Shown: positions 11,168 through 33,734 of the stretch, piece by piece
Numbering within the stretch: the stretch's first letter is position 1
Layout: each line of letters starts with the position of its first letter
From: Anaerohalosphaeraceae bacterium
GTDB lineage: Bacteria > Planctomycetota > Phycisphaerae > Sedimentisphaerales > Anaerohalosphaeraceae
Length of the DNA: 64,000 nucleotides
Assembly: GCA_050309605.1 (NCBI GenBank)
Contig: JBNRMN010000002.1
Location: 1-64,000, forward strand
Direction of reading: 5' to 3'
Position numbers and translations under genes: made by a program
Notes under the pieces: model-generated
The model's database searches: none
Told to the model about the DNA's origin: nothing
Seen by the model: only the letters and a program-made list of their open reading frames with translations

Positions 11168-12925
11168 TTATTTACGCATCCATTTGCCGGATTCTTCCTG
11201 CTCCAGTTTGCGGAGCATGATGCGTTCGAGTTGGTCGAACTGGTCGGGCTGCTGCTGACGCAGAATACGTTCCCGCAGCCGAATGGGATCCAGGTAATTG
11301 CGTTTGATGGCAAAGGGGCTGTTCAATTCAGCCATGGCTTCATCGTAACGGCCTTCCTGATACAGCCGCACGGCCTTGGCGTACCGCGCTTCGTCGATGC
11401 GGGCGCGGCTCATCCACATCAGATTGTGCCGTGCATTCCAGGCCAGCCGTTCCACATCTTCTTTGCGCATGACGCCATCGGCCTGTTCCGGCTCGGTGAT
11501 GATATGGGGCGTCAGCAAAACGATCAGTTCAACGCGCTCGGATCGATCGTTCGTGCTGCGGAACAGATCGCCGACGCCGGGCAAATCGCCGAGAAGGGGA
11601 ACCTGAGTCCGACCGAGCGTGGTTTTTTCCTTAAACAGGCCGCCCAGTACGATGGTCTTGCCGTCTCGAACCATGACGTTGGTGGTCACTTCGGTGGTTT
11701 TTTCTCTGGGCAATACAAAATTACCTTCGATGTCCACGTCCGGCTCACTTTGCTTGGGATTGATCTCCATCCGGACCAGTCCGTCGCCGCTGATGAAGGG
11801 GCGGAAGGCCAGCCGCGTGCCGCCTTCGAGAAACTCGACCTGTTGAATGGCGCCGTCGGCACTGATCTGAGACGTTGTCACGTACCCTCTGCGGTCGCCG
11901 ATCATCACATGGCCGGCCTGTTTGTTCAGTGCCAGTATCTTGGTGTTGGCCAGCAGGGTGGTATCGGTGATGCTGTCCAGGGCCGTCAGCAATACGTCGA
12001 GCTTGCCGTTGACGATGCCGACTCGCAATCCGCCGGCGTCAGTGCCTTGGGCAAAACCGGTCTGAGTGACGCCGCTGTCGCCTAAATCCAGCACACCGGA
12101 GGTGGATAAATCCAGATTCAGATTTCTGAAATCGATGCCGAATTTTGTTGTTTCATCCAGACTGGCTTCCAGAATCGTGACTTCAATCAACACCTGCGGG
12201 GGCTGTTTGTCGATGGCGGCCAGGGCTTCTTTGACGGCCTGGATGTTTTCAGGATAATCGGAAATCGAGAGGATATCCCGAATCGCCAGCGAGTCGCCGC
12301 CTCTGCCGGCCTGTGTGTCGCGCACGGCGGGCGTGGTGACACCGATGCGTCCCATATCGCTGAGCAGCGGTTCGACGAGCTTTTTGGCTTCATCGGAATT
12401 GATGTAGTACAGCTCAATGATGGCGTTTTCAAGCCGTGTCTTGTCCTGCATAAACTCTTCGTTGGTATAGACCTTGATGAAGTTGCCCTTGATTTCGTAC
12501 TTGTGAGTGCCGAGGATGGCCTGCAGGGCCTCTTCGAAGGTTACGTCGTACAGATGCGACACGGTGACAATGCCGTCAACTTTGGCCGAGGGGACGATGT
12601 TTTTCTGATACATCTGAGCCAGCATCCGCAGGGCGTCTCTGATGGGCATATCTTTGCGGAAACTGATGGTCTGAATCGACTGACCGGCCAGGACCGGTAC
12701 CACTGTTTCGTTGTCGTGCTCGGCATTCTGCGGCGCCGGCTGCTGAACAGGCGTCGTCGTGTCCGCCTGCACAAGAAGCGGCTCGGCGGCGACCGGTTCG
12801 GCTGGCTGTACCGCCGGGTCCTGGGCCAATACCACCGCTGCGCAGACGGCCAGCACCGTCATTGCGACGACCGATCCAGCCAGCCGTTTTTTTGTGTGTG
12901 TTCGATTTGTTTTGTGTGACAACAT
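11168..12925 (-). CDS. Secretin (GspD/PilQ family)
   Basis: QVLIEVTILE, VMVRDGKTIVLGGLF, VPLLGDLPGVGDLFRS, LIVLLTPHII; signal peptide. Confidence 0.92.
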   Translation of the reverse strand: MLSHKTNRTHTKKRLAGSVVAMTVLAVCAAVVLAQDPAVQPAEPVAAEPLLVQADTTTPVQQPAPQNAEHDNETVVPVLAGQSIQTISFRKDMPIRDALRMLAQMYQKNIVPSAKVDGIVTVSHLYDVTFEEALQAILGTHKYEIKGNFIKVYTNEEFMQDKTRLENAIIELYYINSDEAKKLVEPLLSDMGRIGVTTPAVRDTQAGRGGDSLAIRDILSISDYPENIQAVKEALAAIDKQPPQVLIEVTILEASLDETTKFGIDFRNLNLDLSTSGVLDLGDSGVTQTGFAQGTDAGGLRVGIVNGKLDVLLTALDSITDTTLLANTKILALNKQAGHVMIGDRRGYVTTSQISADGAIQQVEFLEGGTRLAFRPFISGDGLVRMEINPKQSEPDVDIEGNFVLPREKTTEVTTNVMVRDGKTIVLGGLFKEKTTLGRTQVPLLGDLPGVGDLFRSTNDRSERVELIVLLTPHIITEPEQADGVMRKEDVERLAWNARHNLMWMSRARIDEARYAKAVRLYQEGRYDEAMAELNSPFAIKRNYLDPIRLRERILRQQQPDQFDQLERIMLRKLEQEESGKWMRK

Positions 12926-12944
12926 AAGACACCATCCTTTCAAG

Positions 12945-13568
12945 TTAATCGACGTGTTCGGATTCCGCCATTTTCAAAACGACGCTCCATTGGTCCCAGG
13001 TCAACACAACCCGGTTCTCGCCGATTTCCGAGACCGTCAATTCATAGGTTTCATTATCTTTTTTTACGATTAGCGTTTGTCCCTGTGACAGCACATGGCC
13101 CTGAATGCAGGCGCGCGGGGCCGGATCATTGCCGGTATGCAGTATGGCGTCCAGATTGAGCGTGCGGGTCAGTTCATCGGCAAATGCTTTCTGTCGCCGC
13201 TGCTGTTCTGCGTTTTCATCCGGCGGTTCGGGCGTTTTGTCGGCAGTGCGGAAACCCGGCCAATTGGACGATGAGAACAAGTCGCTTGCCAAGACATCGT
13301 GCCTGCCTTCCATGACCGGCAGCTGAACCGGTTTGATGTGCACGGCGGTCTCGGTCGGTTTTGACGCCGCTGCGGCCAGGGCTTCTTCGGCGGCCTGAGC
13401 CGCCGACGGCCCCGTTTGTCCGCCGGTCAGAACGCGAAGCCACAACATCCCCATCAGCGCCATCAATACGATAGCCGTGATGGTCTTGGGGCTGAGCGAC
13501 CGAAGCGGGTTCGCAGCCGAAGAGATGCCGCTTGTGTTGTTATATTGCGAATATGTCATCGTATTCAT
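12945..13568 (-). CDS. Hypothetical single-TM pilus/T2SS protein (PilP/GspC-like position)
   Basis: One TM, beta-rich C-terminus; lies between the PilO-like gene and the secretin. Confidence 0.5.
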   Translation of the reverse strand: MNTMTYSQYNNTSGISSAANPLRSLSPKTITAIVLMALMGMLWLRVLTGGQTGPSAAQAAEEALAAAASKPTETAVHIKPVQLPVMEGRHDVLASDLFSSSNWPGFRTADKTPEPPDENAEQQRRQKAFADELTRTLNLDAILHTGNDPAPRACIQGHVLSQGQTLIVKKDNETYELTVSEIGENRVVLTWDQWSVVLKMAESEHVD

Positions 13569-13591
13569 TCACCGCAGAGTGAGCATTGCGA

Positions 13592-14137
13592 TTATCCCTG
13601 TTTCGGTTCGATCTGATAATACAGGACGGCTTTGGCGTTCAGTTTGACGCTGCCGTCGGATCGGCTGTCATTGACCAGTTCCACCTGTTCAAAGCGAATC
13701 AGACGCTGCCATTGTTCGATGGCTTGAAAGAAGGCGAACAGATCCTGCATCGTGCCGACTGCCGCCAGCGTCAGCGGAATGGCCCCCAGTTGATCGGCTT
13801 GCACGGCCGGTCCCGGCTGGACATGCTGTTCGCTGAGGTGGTATTGGTTCATCAGGTCGGCGATTTGCTGCCAGAGATCGCCGAACCCTCTGCCGGCAGG
13901 GATGCGGGCGTCAAACACGGCCGCCTGCGCCCGCATGTGGTCGAGCTGTTGAGCCAAATCGGGCAGCCGGGCGCCGTCGGCATGAATTTCTTCAAGGGTT
14001 TGGCGATGCTGCTGAATCGTCTCATCCAGCGTCCGGCGCTGATGCAGCAGGGGGGCGATGCGCAAGCCGCCGATTCCTGTTACACAGAGCAGGACGGTTG
14101 TTATGAGAATCCATTGTTGTTTATCAAGTTGTCTCAT
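13592..14137 (-). CDS. pilO: PilO/GspM-like protein
   Basis: TM, coiled coil, then ferredoxin-like region (FFQAIEQWQRLIRF); M-N-O gene order. Confidence 0.7.
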   Translation of the reverse strand: MRQLDKQQWILITTVLLCVTGIGGLRIAPLLHQRRTLDETIQQHRQTLEEIHADGARLPDLAQQLDHMRAQAAVFDARIPAGRGFGDLWQQIADLMNQYHLSEQHVQPGPAVQADQLGAIPLTLAAVGTMQDLFAFFQAIEQWQRLIRFEQVELVNDSRSDGSVKLNAKAVLYYQIEPKQG

Positions 14138-14143
14138 CGGTTA

Positions 14144-14794
14144 TTACCTCACGATGTCATAATCGGCAACGGTGCAGACGATTTCAAATTCGGTAACGGT
14201 CTTGTCGCCGATCTTTTTCGCCCGCGAAAAAGCGGGCGAAACGGCTGTAAAATAGTCGGATATTTCAAGTCGTTCGATAAGTCCGGCCACATCGGCTCCG
14301 CCGGCGGCGATACCGGTCAGCGTGATTTGGGTTCGCTGCGGTTCGTTGGGCAGCGGGGATGGGCCGTCGGATTTTGAGCCGCCGATACGAATGATGCCGG
14401 TCTTTGAGGCGGGCTTTGCGTCTTTGATCGATTCCTGAATCAGCGATACGCGGGTGAACATGATCCGCTCAGTGACGCAATGGGACAGTTCACCCAGCAC
14501 GGCACTGACGGCCGTTCGGGGGGTCAGTACTTCGAGAATTTCGGTTTCGCGGCTGAGCCGGTCGATTTGAAGCCGCAGTTCCTGCGCCGTCTGAAGCGTC
14601 TGACGGCCTTCTTCGATCACGGATTCGATTTGGCGGGTTTGAGCCTCCAATCCGACGACCGAGCGGCCGAGCATAAAGCTCCAGCCGGCCACCCCTGCGA
14701 CAATCAGTCCGAACAGGACATAATGGCGGTATTGGCGCTGTTTGCGCTGTCGGTCGGCCCGGTACCAGTCTGGCAGGAAATCAAGCTCTTTCAT
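14144..14794 (-). CDS. pilN: PilN-like protein
   Basis: ELDFLP start motif, TM, coiled coil, ITLTGIA. Confidence 0.7.
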   Translation of the reverse strand: MKELDFLPDWYRADRQRKQRQYRHYVLFGLIVAGVAGWSFMLGRSVVGLEAQTRQIESVIEEGRQTLQTAQELRLQIDRLSRETEILEVLTPRTAVSAVLGELSHCVTERIMFTRVSLIQESIKDAKPASKTGIIRIGGSKSDGPSPLPNEPQRTQITLTGIAAGGADVAGLIERLEISDYFTAVSPAFSRAKKIGDKTVTEFEIVCTVADYDIVR

Positions 14795-24806: not shown

Positions 24807-27695
24807 ATGATATTTCCGAGAACCGGCATTATTGCATCCTTTTTTCTGATTTTTTCGATGGGTGCATTGGGGGATGTGCAATGGCTGCGTTATCGAACCA
24901 GTGAGGATGTGGGCCAGGAGGTGGGCGCCTCGGTGAACCGGTATTATCGCAGTTTTGAGTCGCAGCGTCCGGAGCACGTGCGGTGTCCGGAATTCAAATC
25001 CGACAGTCCCTTGTTTATTAAATGGAACACCCCGATGGACGGGCAGGGTTTTCGGTGGATCGCGTTGGATCGTTCGACGCCGTATGGACAATATGATCTG
25101 TTGTATATCGATTCAAACGGCGACGGGCATCTGGATGACGAGAAGCCGTATCAGGGGCGGCGAAGCGATCAGTATCGTATGGCCTTTCATCCGTTTCCTG
25201 TCTATCTGACCGGCGAGGACGGGCCGATTACCTATCATCTGGCGTGCCAATTCTACAGCTATGATGAGCGCAGTCGATATTTGATGATGTCTTCGGGCGG
25301 TTATTATGAAGGGACGGTGTTGATCGGCGGCGAACCGGTTGGGTGTGTTCTGGTGGATACCAACGGCAACGGGACGTTTGACGATACGGCTGAGGACTTT
25401 AACGCCGACCGGATTTTGCTGGGTGAAGGACAAAATCGGCGGGAGTATTTTGTGGGTCGCTATCTGGATTATGAAGGGACGTTGTATCGGCTTCAGATTG
25501 CACGCGACGGGGCGTTTGTGTCTCTTGCGGCTGCGCCCGACGTATCGTTTGGGGTCGTGCAGGTTCCCGAAGGTTTGACGAAATTCTCGGCCGGGGGTGT
25601 TAATGGAATGTATCACATGTCGCCGGAAAACGGGCACGTGCGCCTGCCGGAAGGGACGTATCGGGTGTATCAATGGGAGTTGGTTCGTCAGGACAAGGGG
25701 CAGGACTGGACCTTGCGGGGAAGCAATTTTCCGCGTCAGCAGAGTTTTACGGTCAGCGCCGATACGCCGGCGAGGGTGGCTGTCGGCGAGCCGGTATTTT
25801 CGCGGCTGTCGGTTTCCGAACGACAGGGAATCTATTCGATCAATCAGGAACTTCGGGGCAAGATGAACGAGCAGGTCAGTGTGCTGCGAAACGGTCGGCA
25901 GCCGCCGGCGCCGAAGGTGCATATTCGCAGCCAAACGGGCGCGTATGACCGGACGTTTTCGCTGGAGTATGGGTGAGGCGGTACCTGTTCGCTCTCGTGG
26001 CGAGAGCCGAGGAATATTGAGCGTCCGTATGTTATAACGCCGCTGGTCGAGGGGCCGTTTGATATACGGCAGATGCGCTATGTTTTTAAGCCGCTGCATC
26101 GTTCGGTACCGGTCGTCGGGCCGTGGATTGCCGAGGTTGCCGCCGATGAGGCGCTGCGCGTGGTGGTTGACGGTACGGGGCTGGTTGACCGTAACGGCGA
26201 CCGTTTGCCGGAGCATTTGACGCAAACCGAGACGCAGTGGATTGTATCGCAAGAGGAGGTGGGAGAAGGGCTTGTCTTTGATTTCGGCCAAGCGGTCGAG
26301 TTGGAAACGCTTCAAATCTGGAATTACAATGAGCCGGGCTATACATCGCGCGGCGTCGCGCAGGCGGATGTATCGGTCTGGACGTCTGAAGGCGACTGGA
26401 AGACGGTTTTGCGCGGCGCGTCGCTGCAAGAAGCCGAAGGGACAGACCAGTATGATGAGCCGACCCTGCTGAGGCTTGTCCCGACGCGGGCCGAGAAGGT
26501 GCGGCTGAGCAATCTTAAGCCGTTTGCCGATGAGGGGTTTGTCGGTTTGTCGGCGATCCGGTTTTATGAGAAGGCCACGTTGGCGGCCTGCAATCCGCAG
26601 CCGCCGGGAGGGGCATCGCTGCCGTTCAGTTCTCAGGCGACGTTGTTCTGGACGCCGGGTAAAGAGGCGGCTGCGTATGATGTGTACGCCGGAATCGACG
26701 GTCAAGAGCCGGCGTTTTTGGGTCGCATTGCGGAATCTCAGGTCAAACTGGTCGGGCTGGTCGGCGAACGAACATATCGGTGGCGCATTGATGCGGTACA
26801 AACGAATGGTACCGTTACGCAAGGGCCGCTGTGGTCGTTTTCGGTTGAGCCGGGCCGCTGTGTGGCGCATTGGCCGTTTGATGAACACGAAGGCCAAACG
26901 GCTGCCGATTCGCTCGGTCAGGCGGCCGGTGTGTTGAGAGGTGAACCGGCGTGGCTGATTGACGGCGGACGGATTGACGGGGCCATCGAGCTGGACGGTC
27001 AGCGTGATTTTGTCGAAACGCCGGCGCTGCATTTGAACACTGATACGCTGACGATGACTGTCTGGCTGCGGGCTGATCCGCCGCCGAATCAACTGACCGG
27101 CGTGATGTTCTGCCGCACGCCTTCGACGGTGGCGGGAATTCACTTGAGCGGTACGAATCTGCGGTATCACTGGAATGATCTTCCGGAAAGTTATAATTGG
27201 GACAGCGGACTGAGTCTTCCGACGGATGGCAGGTGGGTGTTTGCCGCCCTGACGGTTACGCCGGAGTCGGCCAGGCTGTACCTGCATCATGACGGTGAGC
27301 TGAAGACAGCGGAAAATCGTCTCGTTCATTCCGTTCAGCCCTTTGACGGGCCGTTGACATTGGGATGTGACGGCGGGATCAATGACCGCAATTTCAAAGG
27401 TCGTATGGATGATGCGCGGGTGTATAATTATGCGCTGACTGCTGAACAGATTCTTGCACTGGCCGAGGGACGTGAGCCGGCGGATTACGCTTCAGATGCG
27501 GCGCCGTCGCTGGCGCTGGCCGGTGCGGAATTGATCCAGCGCGACGCGGATTTGAAGGCGATCGCCGAGGCTCGGCAGCGCGAGCGACAAGCGGCTCCGC
27601 CGGCCGAGGTGCGCCGACGCAATATCCTGCCGGTGCTGGTGATTGTGGCGTTGATTGCCGCCGCGGCGGTGGTCTTGGGCAGGAAGTCCGCATAA
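24807..27695 (+). CDS. Candidate exported selenoprotein (962 aa, Sec390) with galactose-binding-like, Fn3-like and LamG domains and a C-terminal TM anchor
   Basis: ORFs 24807-25976 and 26073-27695 are in one frame, separated only by TGA 25974-25976 (YG-U-GGTCSLSWREP); SECIS-like hairpin follows; signal peptide; LamG motifs VAHWPFDE and FKGRMDDARVYNYALT. Confidence 0.8.
25991..26007 (+). promoter_or_regulatory. Bacterial SECIS-like hairpin 1
   Basis: GCTCTCG-TGG-CGAGAGC, after a 14-nt spacer from the TGA. Confidence 0.8.
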
Positions 27696-27819
27696 ACCGC
27701 AGAATAAGCAGTGAAACGTCAGATTTCACAAACTAAACAGAGAACGTTCTATTATGCGGCACGATCCTTCCGGCCGTATTGAAGGGGGATCGTGCCCGTG
27801 CTGCAAGGGAGGTTTCAGG

Positions 27820-30258
27820 ATGCGTCAAGTCATAAGCAGAAACGGGTGGACGTGGGTTATGGTTGTGTCGGCGGTACTCGGTGCGGCTGAGGCGAAAACG
27901 CTCAAAGGCACGGTCACCGGTCCTGACGGCGCACCGGTGGACGGCGCGGCGGTGAGTGTCTATGCGGCCCAGCTTAAGATTGAATCGCTTGCTTTTGAGG
28001 TTCAGCCGGTCGGTCAGACGACGACGTGTTCGTCGGGACTGTTTTCGGTGGAGACGGATGTTCAGATGCTGTCCAGCGAGGGAGGCTGGCTGTTTTTTGC
28101 GGAAAAGCCGGGCCTGTCAATCGGTTTTTCTTTGCTGCAAGACTTCTCGGAGGACAGCACGTCGCTTCAACTGACCGCGCCGCAGACATTGGCCGGACGG
28201 ATTGAGGATATTCACGGTAATGCGGTTGCCGGGGCCGGGGTGCGTCTGCTGGTTTTATCGGTTCCGGGTGAGCGTGAGTGCTATACGCTGGGGCTTGAGC
28301 CGATCCCGTTTTTTGCTGCGGAAACGGATGCGCAGGGGCGATTTGAATTCGCGAATCTGCCGGAAAACTGTACGGCTGAACTCTTGGCCAAAAAGGCGGG
28401 ACTGGCGACCTTTCATACGCTGACGTCCAACATCAATCCGCAAACGGGGCTGAGTTTTTCGGTCGGGCAGGAAGATATTGTCCTGACCTTATCCGAGGCG
28501 TGTCGAATCAGCGGTATAGTGACCGACCAGGACAATCAGCCGGTGGGTCATGTGCAGATTGTGGCGATTGAAGCGGACCATCCGCAGATCGGGATTTTTA
28601 CCCGGAATCTAACACGCGCCGAGGCCGACGGGACATTCAGCTTCGGCGGCCTGTCGGCCGGGTCATATCGACTCAGTGTGATTGATGCGGACTGGATGTC
28701 CGAGCCGGTTACCGTGGAGGTCAAGACGGAGGTGGGTGTGCCGCTGAAGGTCGTCAAGGGCAGCCTGCTGACAGTGACGGTGGTGGACGGCGTTTCCAAT
28801 CAGCCGGTTGGATCGGCTCAAGTCAATGTGAGTCCGCAGGATGAACGCAGCAGTTTCTCGTTCGGCAGGGGCACGACCGATCCGGAGGGCAAAGTGCAAA
28901 GTCGCGTTTTGCCGGGGACGTATAATGTGTACGTCAGTGCGCCCGGATATCGCAGCAGCCGCAGTGTCGCGGCGGTCGTGGAAGACGGCAAGACCAATGA
29001 GATCACGATTATGCTGGGCGCAACGGCCCGCATTGCCGGAACGGTTACCGATTCCGACGGGCGGCCCGTTGCAGGGGCACAAGTCTTTGTGCTCCCCTTT
29101 TCGGGTAATGTGCGGGACGCCATACAGACAACCGACGAAAAGGGGCACTTTACCCTTGGGTGGGATCCGGAGCAGATCAGTTGGGTACAGGGTGAATTCT
29201 ATCTTGCCGCGATTGACAAAAGCAGCAACCGTGCGGTGATTGAGCCGATTGACGCGGACACCACGGACATCCAGCTTACCCTTCAGCCCGGTCTGACGAT
29301 CACCGGCAAAGTGACCGGCCCGGACGGCGAATCTCTGGCCGGGGCGGGGGTGAATGTGCAGTTTCGCGGCTCAAACTGGTCTTCGACGCTTCAGGGATAC
29401 ACCGCCCAAACCGACCGGGACGGGATGTATCGTATTGCCGCCATACCGCCGCAGCAGCGGTATTACTTATTCATCAGTGGGCCGACCGGTTATGGCACCG
29501 GGTCGGTTAATCTGGAGTTACCGACGGACGGCGATGTGGTTACCGCATCCGATACGGTGCTGAAATTGGCCAATCTGTCGGTATCCGGCAAGGTGGTTGA
29601 TGAGGACGGCAATCCGCTGGAGGGGGTGAATCTGCATTGTTACGGCTCCGGCCAGCCCAGCGCCCAGGCGCGAACCGGCACGGATGGGACATTTGTGTTT
29701 GATGCGGTCTGCCAAGGCGATCTGTCCATTCAGGCCAATTATCAAAAAGACGGCGAGTATATGTATTCCAATGTCCGAACCGAAGGCGGAGCGCAGGAGG
29801 TCACGATCGTCCTGGGCCCGCAAAGCTCCGGCGGCGGCTATGTGCCGCGACGGCCGGCCCCGCTGGTCGGCAAGCTGCTGCCGGATTTGTCGGGGTACGG
29901 CATTGAGCTTGAGAGGCAGGCCGGGCCGGTGCTGGTATGCGTCTGGGACTGGCGGCAGCGGCCGAGCCGTTATATGGTGCGGCAACTGGCCGCGCGGGCC
30001 GGTGCGCTGGCCGAGCGGTCGGTACAGGTCGTGCTGCTCAATGGCGAATCGACGGAACGTGAGCCGCTCGATGCGTGGCTGGCTGATTTTGACATTCCGT
30101 TCGTCTGCGGCGTTATCGCCATCGACCCCGATAATTCTCGATTTAATCTCGGCGTCCAGGCGATGCCGTGGCTGATTTTAACCGATGGTCAGCGCAAGGT
30201 CATTGCTGAAGGGTTTGCGCTGTCCGAATTGACTGATAAGCTGGGCGGACTGCAATAA
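27820..30258 (+). CDS. Exported protein with carboxypeptidase-regulatory-like repeats and a C-terminal thioredoxin-like domain lacking CxxC
   Basis: Repeated ISGxVTDxDGxPVAGAxV...TDxxGxF units; C-terminal LVGKLLPDL...VCVWDWRQRPSR...GVQAMPWLILTD. Confidence 0.75.
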   Translation: MRQVISRNGWTWVMVVSAVLGAAEAKTLKGTVTGPDGAPVDGAAVSVYAAQLKIESLAFEVQPVGQTTTCSSGLFSVETDVQMLSSEGGWLFFAEKPGLSIGFSLLQDFSEDSTSLQLTAPQTLAGRIEDIHGNAVAGAGVRLLVLSVPGERECYTLGLEPIPFFAAETDAQGRFEFANLPENCTAELLAKKAGLATFHTLTSNINPQTGLSFSVGQEDIVLTLSEACRISGIVTDQDNQPVGHVQIVAIEADHPQIGIFTRNLTRAEADGTFSFGGLSAGSYRLSVIDADWMSEPVTVEVKTEVGVPLKVVKGSLLTVTVVDGVSNQPVGSAQVNVSPQDERSSFSFGRGTTDPEGKVQSRVLPGTYNVYVSAPGYRSSRSVAAVVEDGKTNEITIMLGATARIAGTVTDSDGRPVAGAQVFVLPFSGNVRDAIQTTDEKGHFTLGWDPEQISWVQGEFYLAAIDKSSNRAVIEPIDADTTDIQLTLQPGLTITGKVTGPDGESLAGAGVNVQFRGSNWSSTLQGYTAQTDRDGMYRIAAIPPQQRYYLFISGPTGYGTGSVNLELPTDGDVVTASDTVLKLANLSVSGKVVDEDGNPLEGVNLHCYGSGQPSAQARTGTDGTFVFDAVCQGDLSIQANYQKDGEYMYSNVRTEGGAQEVTIVLGPQSSGGGYVPRRPAPLVGKLLPDLSGYGIELERQAGPVLVCVWDWRQRPSRYMVRQLAARAGALAERSVQVVLLNGESTEREPLDAWLADFDIPFVCGVIAIDPDNSRFNLGVQAMPWLILTDGQRKVIAEGFALSELTDKLGGLQ

Positions 30259-30320: not shown

Positions 30321-31475
30321 ATGAGACAATGGGTTGTTTTATGGGTCGCTTTCGCGGCGGCCGGGGCGATGGCGCTGACGGTTTCGGAGCAGACGCTTGA
30401 TCTGTTTGGTACGTCCGAGCCGGAGGATCCGAATGCCGTGGTTCTCGCTGATCCGCCCTACACCGTCAAGGTGTCGCGCACGGGCAAAGTGCTGAATGTG
30501 GCGATTGAGACCGCGTCGCGTGAGCAGGCGGAATTGCTGTTCGGCGCGCATTATGAACAGTCGCCGAGACTGTCGATTTATAAGGGCGATTTGCTGCTGG
30601 CATCGGGGCAGTTCGCCTTTGGGTGAGGCGGCGTCTGTGCGTACTCGTGGCGAGTACCGATGTATGCTTATGGCACATTCAGAATCGAGACGGAAGTGCC
30701 GACCGGCGAAGGCGAACCGATCCGCGTCGAGCCGACGACATATTATTTCAATCCGCTGTATCATGCGTCGGGGTTTGTCTATTTCGTTCCGGTTGCGGCG
30801 GCGTTTTTGTTCCTGAAAGAAAACCGGCGACCGAAGGCGTTTTTGATTCTGGCGCCAATGCTGCTGGTGATGGGGATGTGGAGAGGGTTTTCCGGAGTGA
30901 TGCATTTTCCTGAAGAGGCGGTCAGCATGTTAAATTCAGTGGTTATGGCCTTGCTGGCGGGCCTTTCCGTTGTCTGGCTTCTGGGTGAGCGGATCGGCCA
31001 TCGCCATCGGTTGGCAACGACTTTTCTGGCGGGCGGTATTATGCTGGGGTGCTGTGCCCTGATGCTGGTAGAAATCTTTTCCTCGGACTATGTGTTTCAA
31101 ATCGCATTTTTCGGTGTGATCAGTGCGGCGGTTATCCTGTCGGGCTTACTTGTCGGCGGTTTCCTGAGCCGGAAGCGATTTGGCCCGGTGCGTTTTTTGC
31201 TATGGTTCGGTGTGGGCATTTTATCGGCGACTTTTGTGCTGTTTTTTGTTTATTATGCGATTTTGACATTTTCCTATTTCAGTGCAGATTTGTTCTGGAT
31301 GTTGTTGGGCGTGATGCTGACTTATGCCGCAATCTATTGGGTAGGCGTCTTGCCGTTTCTGGTGCTGTTTTTCGTCAATGACTTTTGGCGGCAGCGGTTT
31401 ACGGCGGTCATGGGATTGGGCACTGTAGCCGTATCCGAGACGGAAGCTCACGAGGCGTTTACGTCTGACTTCTGA
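30321..31475 (+). CDS. Candidate membrane selenoprotein (384 aa, Sec102)
   Basis: ORFs 30321-30626 and 30660-31475 are in one frame across TGA 30624-30626 (FG-U-GGVCAYSWRVP); SECIS-like hairpin; signal peptide plus about 7 TMs. Confidence 0.8.
30641..30657 (+). promoter_or_regulatory. Bacterial SECIS-like hairpin 2
   Basis: GTACTCG-TGG-CGAGTAC, after a 14-nt spacer; compensatory changes relative to hairpin 1. Confidence 0.8.
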
Positions 31476-32323
31476 TCGCCCAGTTCCGTCGGTTCGTCCA
31501 GCAGGGTGGCCGGCTTCAGTGCGCCGGGGCCGCATTTTGTGCATTCCAGACAGCGGATGCAGTGGTCGGCGTTGGGGGTCTTATCGGGCTGGACGCCGTA
31601 GCGGCACAGGGTTCGACAGCGGCCGCATTGGGTGCATTGGTGTTCTTCCAGGTTCAGTGTAAACAGAGAAAACCGATTGAAAAAGCCGAAAATCGCACCC
31701 AGCGGGCACAGAATTCGACACCACGGGCGGATGGTAAAAAAGATGGCGGCGACAAAGACGACGATGATGGTGATTTTGAGGGTGTTGGGCCAGGGGATTA
31801 CGTCGCCGGCGACGGCGGCGGAAACCACATCGGGCAGGGCCTTTTCCAGCCCGCCGGCCGGGCAGATACGGCAGATAAACAGCGGGTGGCCTTCGCCGAA
31901 AAAGTAGGGGACGGCCAGGACTGTCCCGATCAGTACGACATAGCGAAAATGCCCCATCCAGCGGGGGATTTTGAAACGCGGCGCGGGGACCTTGGCCGCG
32001 ACATCCTGAAGCAGGCCGAACGGACACATCCAGCCGCACACCAGCGAGCCGAGCATCACGCCGAACGCGATCAGCAGTCCCACGGCAAAATACGGAAACA
32101 GGTGCAGCGCACTGAATTGGGCAATGACGCCGATGGGGCAGCCGAACAAGGCCAGCGGACAGGCATAGCAATGGAACACCGGTCCGCACACGGTGTGCAT
32201 CCGCAACCCGAACGGATCGAGCCAGACCAGCAAAAAACCCGTCTGTACCCACAGCCGATGCGGCAGGAGTTTTTTGAAAAACCGCGACAGCGGCGATGAC
32301 GATGAATTGACCGTGGACACCAC
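31448..32323 (-). CDS. Membrane 4Fe-4S binding protein (NapH/MauN-like)
   Basis: CYACP, CGWMCPFG, CRICPAG, CRILCPLG and two CxxCxxCxxxC motifs. Confidence 0.88.
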   Translation of the reverse strand: MVSTVNSSSSPLSRFFKKLLPHRLWVQTGFLLVWLDPFGLRMHTVCGPVFHCYACPLALFGCPIGVIAQFSALHLFPYFAVGLLIAFGVMLGSLVCGWMCPFGLLQDVAAKVPAPRFKIPRWMGHFRYVVLIGTVLAVPYFFGEGHPLFICRICPAGGLEKALPDVVSAAVAGDVIPWPNTLKITIIVVFVAAIFFTIRPWCRILCPLGAIFGFFNRFSLFTLNLEEHQCTQCGRCRTLCRYGVQPDKTPNADHCIRCLECTKCGPGALKPATLLDEPTELGDQKSDVNAS

Positions 32324-32723: not shown

Positions 32724-33734
32724 TTATGTTGTCGGTTTGATTTCCAGCGGATGGGCGTTTTGATATTGTTCCTGCATTCGACTGGTGGTGATATGCGTAT
32801 AAATCTGGGTTGTCGATAACGATTGGTGTCCCAGCAGTTCCTGAACGCTTCGCAGGTCGGCACCGTTGTTGAGCATATGGGTCGCGAAGCTGTGCCGCAG
32901 CGTGTGCGGGCTGATGTTCGGGTCCAGACCCGCCTCGATGAGGTATTTGTCCATTTTTCGGCGGACGCTGCGGGCACTCATCCGTTTGCCGTGCTTGTTG
33001 GCAAACAGCACTTTACTGTCAAAGCCCGGATCATTGGCCAGACGGCGGCTGCGAAACTCCAGATAATGTTGAATGCTCTGCAGCGCTGTCAGACCAATCG
33101 GGCAAATCCGTTCTTTTTTGCCTTTGCCGCGGACGTGAATCACTTCGCCGAGGAAATCCACATCTTCCATATTCAGGGCCACCAGTTCGCTGACCCGCAT
33201 CCCCGTGCTGTAGAGTACTTCCATCATCGCTCGGTCGCGGGCACCCAGCCATGTGGTGGCCGGCGGTGTGTTCAGCAGCCGCTGAACCTGCTCGTATTCA
33301 AGAAACTTGGGCAGTTTTTTATCTTGTTTGGGTGTTTTGATATTGGTGGCCGGATTGCTGGACACATAATTGCGCTTGACGAGAAATTTGTAAAAGCTGC
33401 GCACCGTGGCCAGTTTGCGTGCGGTGGTGGATTTGGAATAGGCGTGGGAGTTCAATTCCGCCAGAAAACGGCGTATCGTATTGACGTCCGCAGCCTGCAG
33501 CAGGGTATCGATCTGGGTTTGTGCCTGGGTCTGTGTTTGTGTCGCGACCGAACCGTTCTCGGCGGCCCAGGGATTTTGTCCGTTGTCGTCGGGGCCGTGC
33601 GCGTCGGCGTGGGCGGCCAGAAAGGCGCTGTACTGCTCCAGGTCAGCCTCATAACACTTGGCGGTATGCTCGGAAAAATGTTTTTCAAATTTCAGATAAT
33701 TGACAAAATCCTGGATAATCGCCGAGTTGTCCAT
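32724..33734 (-). CDS. xerC: Tyrosine recombinase XerC
   Basis: LYSTGMRVSEL, GKGKKER, SPHTLRHSFATHML, LLGHQSLSTTQIYTH. Confidence 0.9.
   Translation of the reverse strand: MDNSAIIQDFVNYLKFEKHFSEHTAKCYEADLEQYSAFLAAHADAHGPDDNGQNPWAAENGSVATQTQTQAQTQIDTLLQAADVNTIRRFLAELNSHAYSKSTTARKLATVRSFYKFLVKRNYVSSNPATNIKTPKQDKKLPKFLEYEQVQRLLNTPPATTWLGARDRAMMEVLYSTGMRVSELVALNMEDVDFLGEVIHVRGKGKKERICPIGLTALQSIQHYLEFRSRRLANDPGFDSKVLFANKHGKRMSARSVRRKMDKYLIEAGLDPNISPHTLRHSFATHMLNNGADLRSVQELLGHQSLSTTQIYTHITTSRMQEQYQNAHPLEIKPTT

Follow-up and report, generated by a model that had tools for sequence, protein, structure and literature searches.

The stretch of DNA analysed here, called the window, comprises 64,000 nucleotides of an Anaerohalosphaeraceae bacterium of the phylum Planctomycetota (positions 1 to 64,000 of contig JBNRMN010000002.1, assembly GCA_050309605.1). 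It poses the question of whether the TGA at 30624..30626 terminates a gene or is decoded as an amino acid within one. Direct reading of the frames showed that this triplet joins the open reading frame (ORF) 30321..30626 to the ORF 30660..31475 in a single shared frame, and that the readthrough product, with the TGA written as U, is MRQW...GQFAFG-U-GGVCAYSWRVP-MYAYG.... An earlier note on this DNA had claimed that GQFAFG-U-GGVCAYSWRVP continues into the membrane-protein ORF at 30660, and the frames bear this out. From sequence comparison we infer, with a probability of roughly 85%, that UGA 30624 is a codon for selenocysteine (Sec) and that a hairpin just downstream of it would act as a bacterial selenocysteine insertion sequence (SECIS); selenium incorporation and SelB binding at this site are predicted along with it.

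A probable single protein across an in-frame TGA

We searched 41 related genomes of the same order, in all six frames, with residues 1-160 of the 30321 protein. This returned 22 matches in 11 of the genomes, each with exactly one in-frame TGA. Across the phylum, a profile of the domain of about 125 residues that surrounds the TGA, run against a sample of 401 genomes, gave 78 matches in 34 genomes, of which 65 contained an in-frame TGA and 13 did not; a single genome held up to nine copies of the family. Residues were then counted over 63 distinct TGA copies from fetched loci and over 75 distinct copies with a residue in the Sec column. That column contained TGA in 63 copies, a Cys codon in three (TGC in loci L065 and L066, TGT in L102) and other residues in nine, while several more copies lacked the loop. 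Around the TGA, Gly preceded U in 63 of 63 TGA copies, Gly followed at +1 and at +2 in 54 of 63 each, and Cys stood at +4 in 54 of 63 and anywhere from +3 to +6 in 59. Conservation of the protein spans the TGA on both sides in two alignments.

The complete gene occupies 30321..31475 on the plus strand, 385 codons including a terminal TGA at 31473-75, and AGGGAG lies 5 nt upstream of its ATG. Its product begins with a predicted signal peptide, MRQWVVLWVAFAAAGAMALTVS (30321..30386), recognised by eye from its hydrophobic N-terminus and corresponding to a helix at residues 2-18 with a low predicted local distance difference test (pLDDT) score in the AlphaFold model. A beta-sandwich domain follows (residues ~43-145; 30447..30755), delimited by the alignments and by a model of pLDDT 83 with eight strands; it carries the loop G-U-G-G-x-C, in which the UGA is codon 102 (Sec102), an assignment made from direct reading, conservation of the column and the Sec machinery of the genome. 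The remainder, residues 146-363 (30756..31409), is modelled by AlphaFold as a polytopic membrane domain of about seven long helices, without a Pfam or NCBIfam match. Orthologues of the gene in the same genus, at 86-89% identity, have one TGA each, and one orthologue stops five codons earlier, at a stop other than TGA. Because the 30321 gene itself ends at TGA 31473 and this orthologue at a non-TGA stop, TGA otherwise serves as a stop in this genome.

The TGA at 30624 could likewise be a true stop, separating a small exported protein (30321..30626) from a membrane protein initiated at ATG 30660, with the hairpin as an intercistronic element that serves, for instance, translational coupling or mRNA stability. 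An in-frame ATG does stand 11 codons past the TGA, the 30321 gene is itself terminated by TGA, and all ten database relatives of the 30321 protein correspond to the downstream ORF alone (242-271 residues, unnamed or "hypothetical protein"). Two genes would nevertheless have had to keep a common frame across the TGA in 63 distinct copies, and in one common architecture just ~41-45 conserved residues follow the TGA, which speaks against an independent downstream gene. The G-U-G-G-x-C motif and the strands on either side of it form one predicted sandwich, three homologues carry a Cys codon in place of the TGA, and copies of the family co-occur with selA and adjoin it, as described below. Two separate genes are therefore very improbable. 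If the Sec reading is right, gene callers split these genes systematically, so that an exported selenoprotein family is invisible in current annotation.

The copies without TGA deserve mention in their own right. Locus L102, on the minus strand of G435:C290:152-508 in a metagenome-assembled genome of an uncultured Pirellulales bacterium, has TGT at the Sec column together with a perfect GCTCTCG-TGG-CGAGAGC stem, and the same contig also holds a TGA copy; it looks, by its sequence, like a recent one-base change from Sec to Cys. Loci L087 (G231:C442:1-3516), L088 and L090 are arrays of paralogues with S, A, D or E at the Sec site and no hairpin, in genomes that also have TGA copies. A pattern search with Cys placed at the Sec position gave just two loci: the Bacteroidetes locus L086, which was set aside when the hidden Markov model (HMM) of the domain gave no confirmation, and the Pirellulales record, which has two copies.

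A covarying hairpin downstream of the TGA

The hairpin lies within the coding sequence at 30641..30657 of the plus strand and reads GTACTCG-TGG-CGAGTAC, with a 5' arm at 30641-47, the loop UGG at 30648-50 and a 3' arm at 30651-57. Its stem of 7 bp begins after a gap of 14 nt from the UGA, and its loop after 21 nt (30627-30647). A second gene of the window, 24807..27695 on the plus strand, appears to encode a further selenoprotein of 962 residues; its in-frame UGA at 25974..25976 joins 24807..25976 to the frame of 26073..27695 and is followed, at the same distance as in the 30321 gene, by the hairpin GCTCTCG TGG CGAGAGC (25991..26007, plus strand). The two stems differ at positions 2 and 3, T-A to C-G and A-T to T-A. 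That both differences preserve pairing while changing the protein had been pointed out in the earlier note, and direct reading confirmed it: both are compensatory and both are non-synonymous (Y to L, V to E). From GGGTGA onward 31 of 39 nt are identical between the two genes, and the domains as proteins are only about 25% identical.

A single hairpin of this size is within chance. A degenerate 17-nt pattern was not enriched in the window (4 matches against 1.5 expected; 9 of 100 shuffles reached 4), and in the whole genome it gave 13 forward and 5 reverse matches against 5 and 5 in the control, a third copy of the family being recovered among chance matches. The significance of the hairpin rests on comparison across homologues.

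We tested the 7-bp stem for covariation in 52 distinct TGA windows, using 500 shuffles and controls in which the pairing partner was slid. Paired cells amounted to 89.6% against 77.9% after shuffling, cells with a two-sided change to 36 against 7.5, and the covariation score to 0.384 against 0.180, with a maximum of 0.199 for slid partners; for none of the three did any of the 500 shuffles reach the observed value, a significance that is overstated in that the shuffles treat kindred sequences as independent. Two-sided changes occurred at six of the seven stem pairs. RNAalifold, given no input structure, predicted the five central stem pairs, each with compensatory changes. Among the variants are the arms CTCACG/CGTGGG, TATGCG/CGTATA and TACCCG/CGGGTA, and further GGCACCCG/CGGGTGCC, AGTGCGTT/AACGCACT and GAATATTC/GAATATTC.

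The contrast between TGA copies and their paralogues is independent of the kinship problem. When the register is fixed by the Trp codon, all seven pairs form in 46 of the 63 TGA copies and at least six in 55, the mean being 6.35. In the 15 non-TGA copies the mean is 3.07 of 7, and three reach 6 of 7: L102 with its TGT and intact stem, a contig-end copy whose Sec column is cut off, and a copy whose Sec loop is deleted. The earlier suggestion that selection acts on the RNA structure is accordingly upheld by the two-sided changes, the shuffles, the RNAalifold prediction and the large loss of pairing in non-TGA paralogues.

How far does the RNA dictate the peptide? The hairpin overlies the codons of [Y/L]-S-W-R-[V/E], so that the codon two before W is the reverse complement of the codon two after it; indeed, the flanking codons are mutual reverse complements (TAC/GTA, CTC/GAG, TAT/ATA). 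RNA accounts for the Ser codon, for the choice of Arg codon (CGA with TCG; CGT with ACG or GCG) and for the two flanking residues. Part of the motif belongs to the protein as well: 12 of the 15 non-TGA paralogues retain W, usually with R or K two residues before P, although they lack the hairpin, which makes W-[RK]-x-P a protein-level feature too. The proposal that SWR may be dictated by the SECIS is therefore correct only in part.

These observations bear on whether Sec might be inserted here while the 7-bp stem is a mere by-product of the YSWRV peptide motif, the true SelB element lying elsewhere or being of a different kind. Retention of the W in those 12 paralogues would fit such a by-product, as would the fact that a single stem sequence, that of the common YSWRV forms, recurs in most TGA copies, possibly by common descent. 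Yet the independent variants LSWRE, LTWRG, YAWRI, YPWRV, HPWRV, QCVWNAL, YSANI and YSGGI show changes that are non-synonymous and compensatory at once; some TGA copies that have lost W and R (variants YSANI, YSGRI and YSGGI; loci L081, L084 and L078) keep a perfect stem, whereas the W-R-x-P paralogues without TGA have lost their pairing, and slid partners scored far lower. We consider a by-product stem highly unlikely.

In the consensus bacterial SECIS (bSECIS) of PMC13188914, a 2026 review, an upper stem of 4-16 bp carries an apical loop of 3-9 nt that lies 16-37 nt from the UGA; G occupies one or both of loop positions 1 and 2, mostly with G or U as the next base, and the minimum free energy (MFE) is at most -7.5 kcal/mol. 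The 30641 hairpin, a stem-loop within the coding sequence just 3' of the UGA, has a loop length, a stem length, a loop G and a UGA-to-loop distance that conform to this model. Its loop U-G-G has G at position 2 and then G; with the closing G-C pair open, the loop becomes G-U-G-G-C, with G first and then U. Most of the 52 windows have 20-25 nt from UGA to loop, and within its 53-nt context (-16 kcal/mol) the hairpin is kept in the MFE structure.

In 55 of the 63 TGA copies a G comes immediately after the UGA, and the six nucleotides that follow the UGA are most often GGC GGC (27 copies), GGC GGT (9) and GGC GGA (5). This G may reflect a decoding context effect or merely the Gly-Gly motif.

Selenocysteine machinery and proximity to selA

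The genome (3.4 Mb, 54.5% G+C, 97 contigs) contains a complete set of genes for Sec decoding. We found tRNA-Sec (74.4 bits, cut-off 47), selA (470 bits), a SelB wing domain within a 639-residue frame directly downstream of selA, and selD (375 bits), which adjoins tRNA-Sec and has no internal stop.

Occurrence of the domain was cross-tabulated by hand against selA in the 401-genome phylum sample. Whereas selA was present in 289 of the 401 genomes overall, it was present in 29 of the 30 genomes with a TGA copy. Of four genomes with non-TGA forms only, three gave no selA match (G112 and G264, which have Cys forms, and G279) and one a partial match (G148). Within the window's own taxonomic family all six sampled genomes were concordant, two having selA and the domain and four, all 99% complete, having neither.

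The association extends to gene position. Among the matches listed, 10 genomes of six families (G000, G002, G245, G231, G086, G046, G055, G146, G410 and G095) have a TGA copy and selA on one contig, 0.4-2.1 kb apart, and copy and selA are on different contigs in eight further genomes; another genome, G023, has two tandem copies near selA and divergent from it. Such repeated siting points to joint inheritance or joint regulation of the family and the Sec machinery.

The genome of the window has a third copy of its own outside the window, at G000:C34:83204-83494 on the minus strand, in divergent orientation to selA and 469 bp away from that gene. It reads MEYG-U-GSTCRYSWRVP, with the stem GGTACTCG/CGAGTGCC, in a short frame of 50 codons before and 45 after the TGA. 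Since no more than the C-terminal half of the domain can be recognised, this copy may be what is left of a selA-adjacent paralogue such as those still intact in G023 and G245. A 271-residue ORF beside it, considered as a membrane domain like that of the 30321 protein, turned out to be an unrelated methyltransferase.

We also asked what else the Sec machinery of this genome might serve. Five of the commonest selenoprotein families were sought in the genome and none was found in a TGA-containing form: PF00384 (molybdopterin oxidoreductase) and PF02662 (FlpD) had no matches, and the five AhpC-TSA matches, the five thioredoxin matches and selD had no internal stop. Two genome-wide scans were dropped, one for a TGA plus hairpin (91 candidates, mostly out-of-frame noise) and one for codon usage on either side of each TGA (218 candidates, mainly antisense frames, with the known copies outside the top 70). 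By this non-exhaustive search, the Sec-domain family is the only TGA-containing family found in the genome.

Several results weigh against Sec decoding through the hairpin. Cys homologues are scarce (3 of 75 copies), which is unusual for selenoproteins, and the genome G103 (90% complete, 410 contigs) has a TGA copy and no selA match. The bare 17-nt hairpin reaches -7.2 kcal/mol where the model's limit is -7.5; in a crude scan all four bSECIS constraints held together in only 39 of the 52 windows; and the MFE of the two 53-nt windows, with z-scores of -0.28 and -0.59, is no better than that of shuffles. In the standard register 8 of the 63 TGA copies form at most five of the seven pairs, although in several of these a stem in a shifted register can be seen by eye, a post-hoc reading. 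The overstated significance of the shuffles belongs here too. Searched with Rfam release 15, the whole window had nothing that reached the gathering score, and at E<=10 there were just two chance-level matches (E 3-6) in 30560-30720. Neither Foldseek and VIA-align nor Pfam and NCBIfam, finally, provided a match that would support a function from fold or family.

Some of these points would suit a different kind of readthrough, in which the hairpin stimulates near-cognate or suppressor decoding of the UGA as Trp, Cys, Gly or Arg, or in which the codon is recoded in this lineage. Structures 3' of a stop codon can promote readthrough, and as a SECIS the hairpin would be small and weak and is matched by no Rfam SECIS model. 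Against this stand the full Sec machinery in the genome, the tracking of selA by TGA copies (29 of 30 genomes of the phylum sample, with all six sampled genomes of the family concordant), the lack of a selA match in the Cys-only genomes, and the siting of copies next to selA in G023 as well as in 10 of the genomes sampled across the phylum. The substitute residue in homologues is Cys, the usual counterpart of Sec, and the geometry of the hairpin is that of the bSECIS model. Insertion of an amino acid other than Sec is, in our estimate, unlikely, and we retain the UGA as a probable Sec codon in what follows.

The domain, its carriers and known systems

The domain is modelled as an eight-strand sandwich with Sec in an inter-strand loop. 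Foldseek found generic Ig/fn3-like sandwiches (best E 4e-3), and VIA-align a flat list of unrelated sandwich domains (best Z 9.4 at a root-mean-square deviation of 2.6 over 91 residues); over all sandwich searches the best Z was 9.4-10.3, again with generic Ig/fn3-like matches only. By its model, the domain would thus be a generic Ig/fn3-like sandwich, a common arrangement without a specific relative. The full-length AlphaFold model (pLDDT 76) places helices at residues 146-164, 171-194, 198-220, 230-250, 255-282, 289-318 and 322-347; fold searches with it gave no lead on the membrane domain, the lists being filled by sandwich matches, and the downstream ORF reached a maximum of 0.86 against unnamed clusters in the ESM Atlas, also without a lead.

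A portable Sec domain fused to different partners had been proposed from the two genes of the window, and four settings were indeed found: ahead of a polytopic membrane domain, midway along a long protein that also has a LamG domain and a C-terminal anchor, ahead of a single C-terminal anchor, and at the C-terminal end of proteins of ~460-520 residues. The second setting is that of the 24807 gene, whose product carries Sec390 in the same domain, followed by F5/8-C-like and LamG domains and a C-terminal anchor. Upstream of the domain, at residues ~100-200 (25100-25400), this protein has Asp/Asn-rich repeats such as DSNGDGHLDD and VDTNGNGTFDD, seen also in L094 and L095; judged from their sequence, these repeats look like calcium-binding loops, and Pfam recognises no family in the region.

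All five loci that we examined (the window, L094, L095, L096 and L097) show a recurring cluster, in variable gene order, of a 30321-type gene, a 24807-type gene, a CarboxypepD_reg repeat protein of ~820 residues and an adjacent Fer4_5 protein; L094 has only the first and last of these. In the window the repeat protein is encoded on the plus strand at 27754..30258 (834 residues, CarboxypepD_reg/Big_1 repeats; PF13620, 195 bits, five stretches) and has counterparts in L095, L096 and L097. The Fer4_5 protein, of the NapH-like 4Fe-4S kind (31448..32323, minus strand; PF12801, 49 bits), is convergent with the 30321 gene.

Individual loci differ from this pattern. In L098 (G006:C55), of the same genus, the domain copies are just ~2.1 kb apart in the region corresponding to 24807-30258, and the 24807-type frame ends at a TGA 76 codons past Sec; from the early TGA and the short gap, the LamG part and the 834-residue repeat gene seem to be missing. 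The 24807-type gene of L097 (10740-12137) is broken by masked bases (X), and the CarboxypepD_reg repeat protein of that locus (12870-14576) has a C-terminal AhpC/TSA-like stretch scoring 25 bits against a cut-off of 26. In the window's own genome an AhpC-TSA domain lies elsewhere, inside a 787-residue frame at G000:C55:17004-17354. Just past the Fer4_5 gene of the window, at 32724-33734 on the minus strand, is a XerC/D-type tyrosine recombinase (Phage_integrase, 180 bits).

In the mechanism that we propose, a ribosome arriving at UGA 30624 would meet the 7-bp, UGG-loop hairpin 14 nt downstream, which would act as a bacterial SECIS and recruit SelB-GTP-Sec-tRNA(Sec); Sec would be inserted and translation would proceed into the membrane domain. 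The product would be exported by its signal peptide and display the Gly-rich Sec loop of the Ig/fn3-like sandwich at the outer face of the cytoplasmic membrane, ahead of the domain of about seven helices, and the sandwich itself would be a movable module that occurs on carrier proteins of several kinds. Our guess at the role of the protein, drawn from its signal peptide, its Sec motif and the neighbouring Fe-S gene, is extracytoplasmic selenol/thiol redox chemistry or a chalcogen- or metal-binding Sec-x3-Cys site; electrons might perhaps be supplied via the neighbouring NapH-like Fe-S membrane protein. It is possible, though doubtful, that this phylum-wide exported Ig-like Sec-x3-Cys family represents the principal and perhaps only selenoproteins of the lineage, the reason why Sec decoding has been kept, and a new extracytoplasmic Se-dependent redox or chalcogen system. 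Were it so, a family linked to selA-selB and to a NapH-like cluster would have been missed by selenoprotein finders based on Cys homologues.

The proposed decoding follows the mechanism already known from bacteria; the apparent novelty lies in the family, with its exported Ig-like domain, rare Cys forms, expansion of paralogues and linkage to selA. Like the E. coli fdhF-type SECIS, the 30641 element is an intra-coding hairpin after the UGA with a small loop containing G then G, in a genome that has selA, selB, selD and tRNA-Sec. It differs in being very short, with a 3-nt UGG loop that is at the same time a Trp codon, in its near-invariant sequence across the phylum and in having no Rfam match. 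At 17 nt it would be a very compact natural SECIS; its size, its many natural compensatory variants and its overlap with the Trp codon would suit it well to tests of SelB specificity.

NapGH/NosGH-type periplasmic redox modules use a NapH-type (Fer4_5) membrane Fe-S protein. The present cluster resembles them in that a Fer4_5 gene adjoins it in five of five loci and that the partner proteins are predicted to be exported, and differs in having no Nap, Nos or other known catalytic subunit; the link is one of gene neighbourhood alone.

Catalogues of selenoproteins provide the last comparison. The 30321 protein has no Pfam or NCBIfam family at E <= 0.1, and the Pfam and NCBIfam matches of the 24807 protein (LamG, F5/8-C, TafC-like) lie only outside the Sec domain. 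Table 1 of PMC13188914 comprises 119 prokaryotic selenoprotein families, each represented by a model from Pfam, NCBIfam or the like, and lists neither the U-G-G-x-C motif nor such a domain; nor is the family described in the available portions of the deep-Sep and BSepDB papers (BSepDB Table S2 being outside that scope) or in the literature searched. The exported family is thus apparently uncatalogued, and PMC12013277 states of a published selenoprotein predictor that it may miss families with few Cys counterparts. With catalogued families such as DUF1573 (PF07610, UGC), the UGSC-containing family (NF041046) and hypothetical protein DG (NF049953, GUxG) it shares a single Sec in a short Gly/Cys-rich motif, a computational assignment from conserved TGA, Cys homologues and downstream hairpin, and a presumed redox function. 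It departs from them in its motif G-U-G-G-x-C (U-x3-C), in the lack of an HMM over the Sec domain and in the rarity of Cys homologues. Most selenoproteins are thioredoxin-like (PMC13188914); the family described here, with an Ig/fn3-like sandwich, a predicted extracytoplasmic location and few Cys counterparts, is unusual among them.

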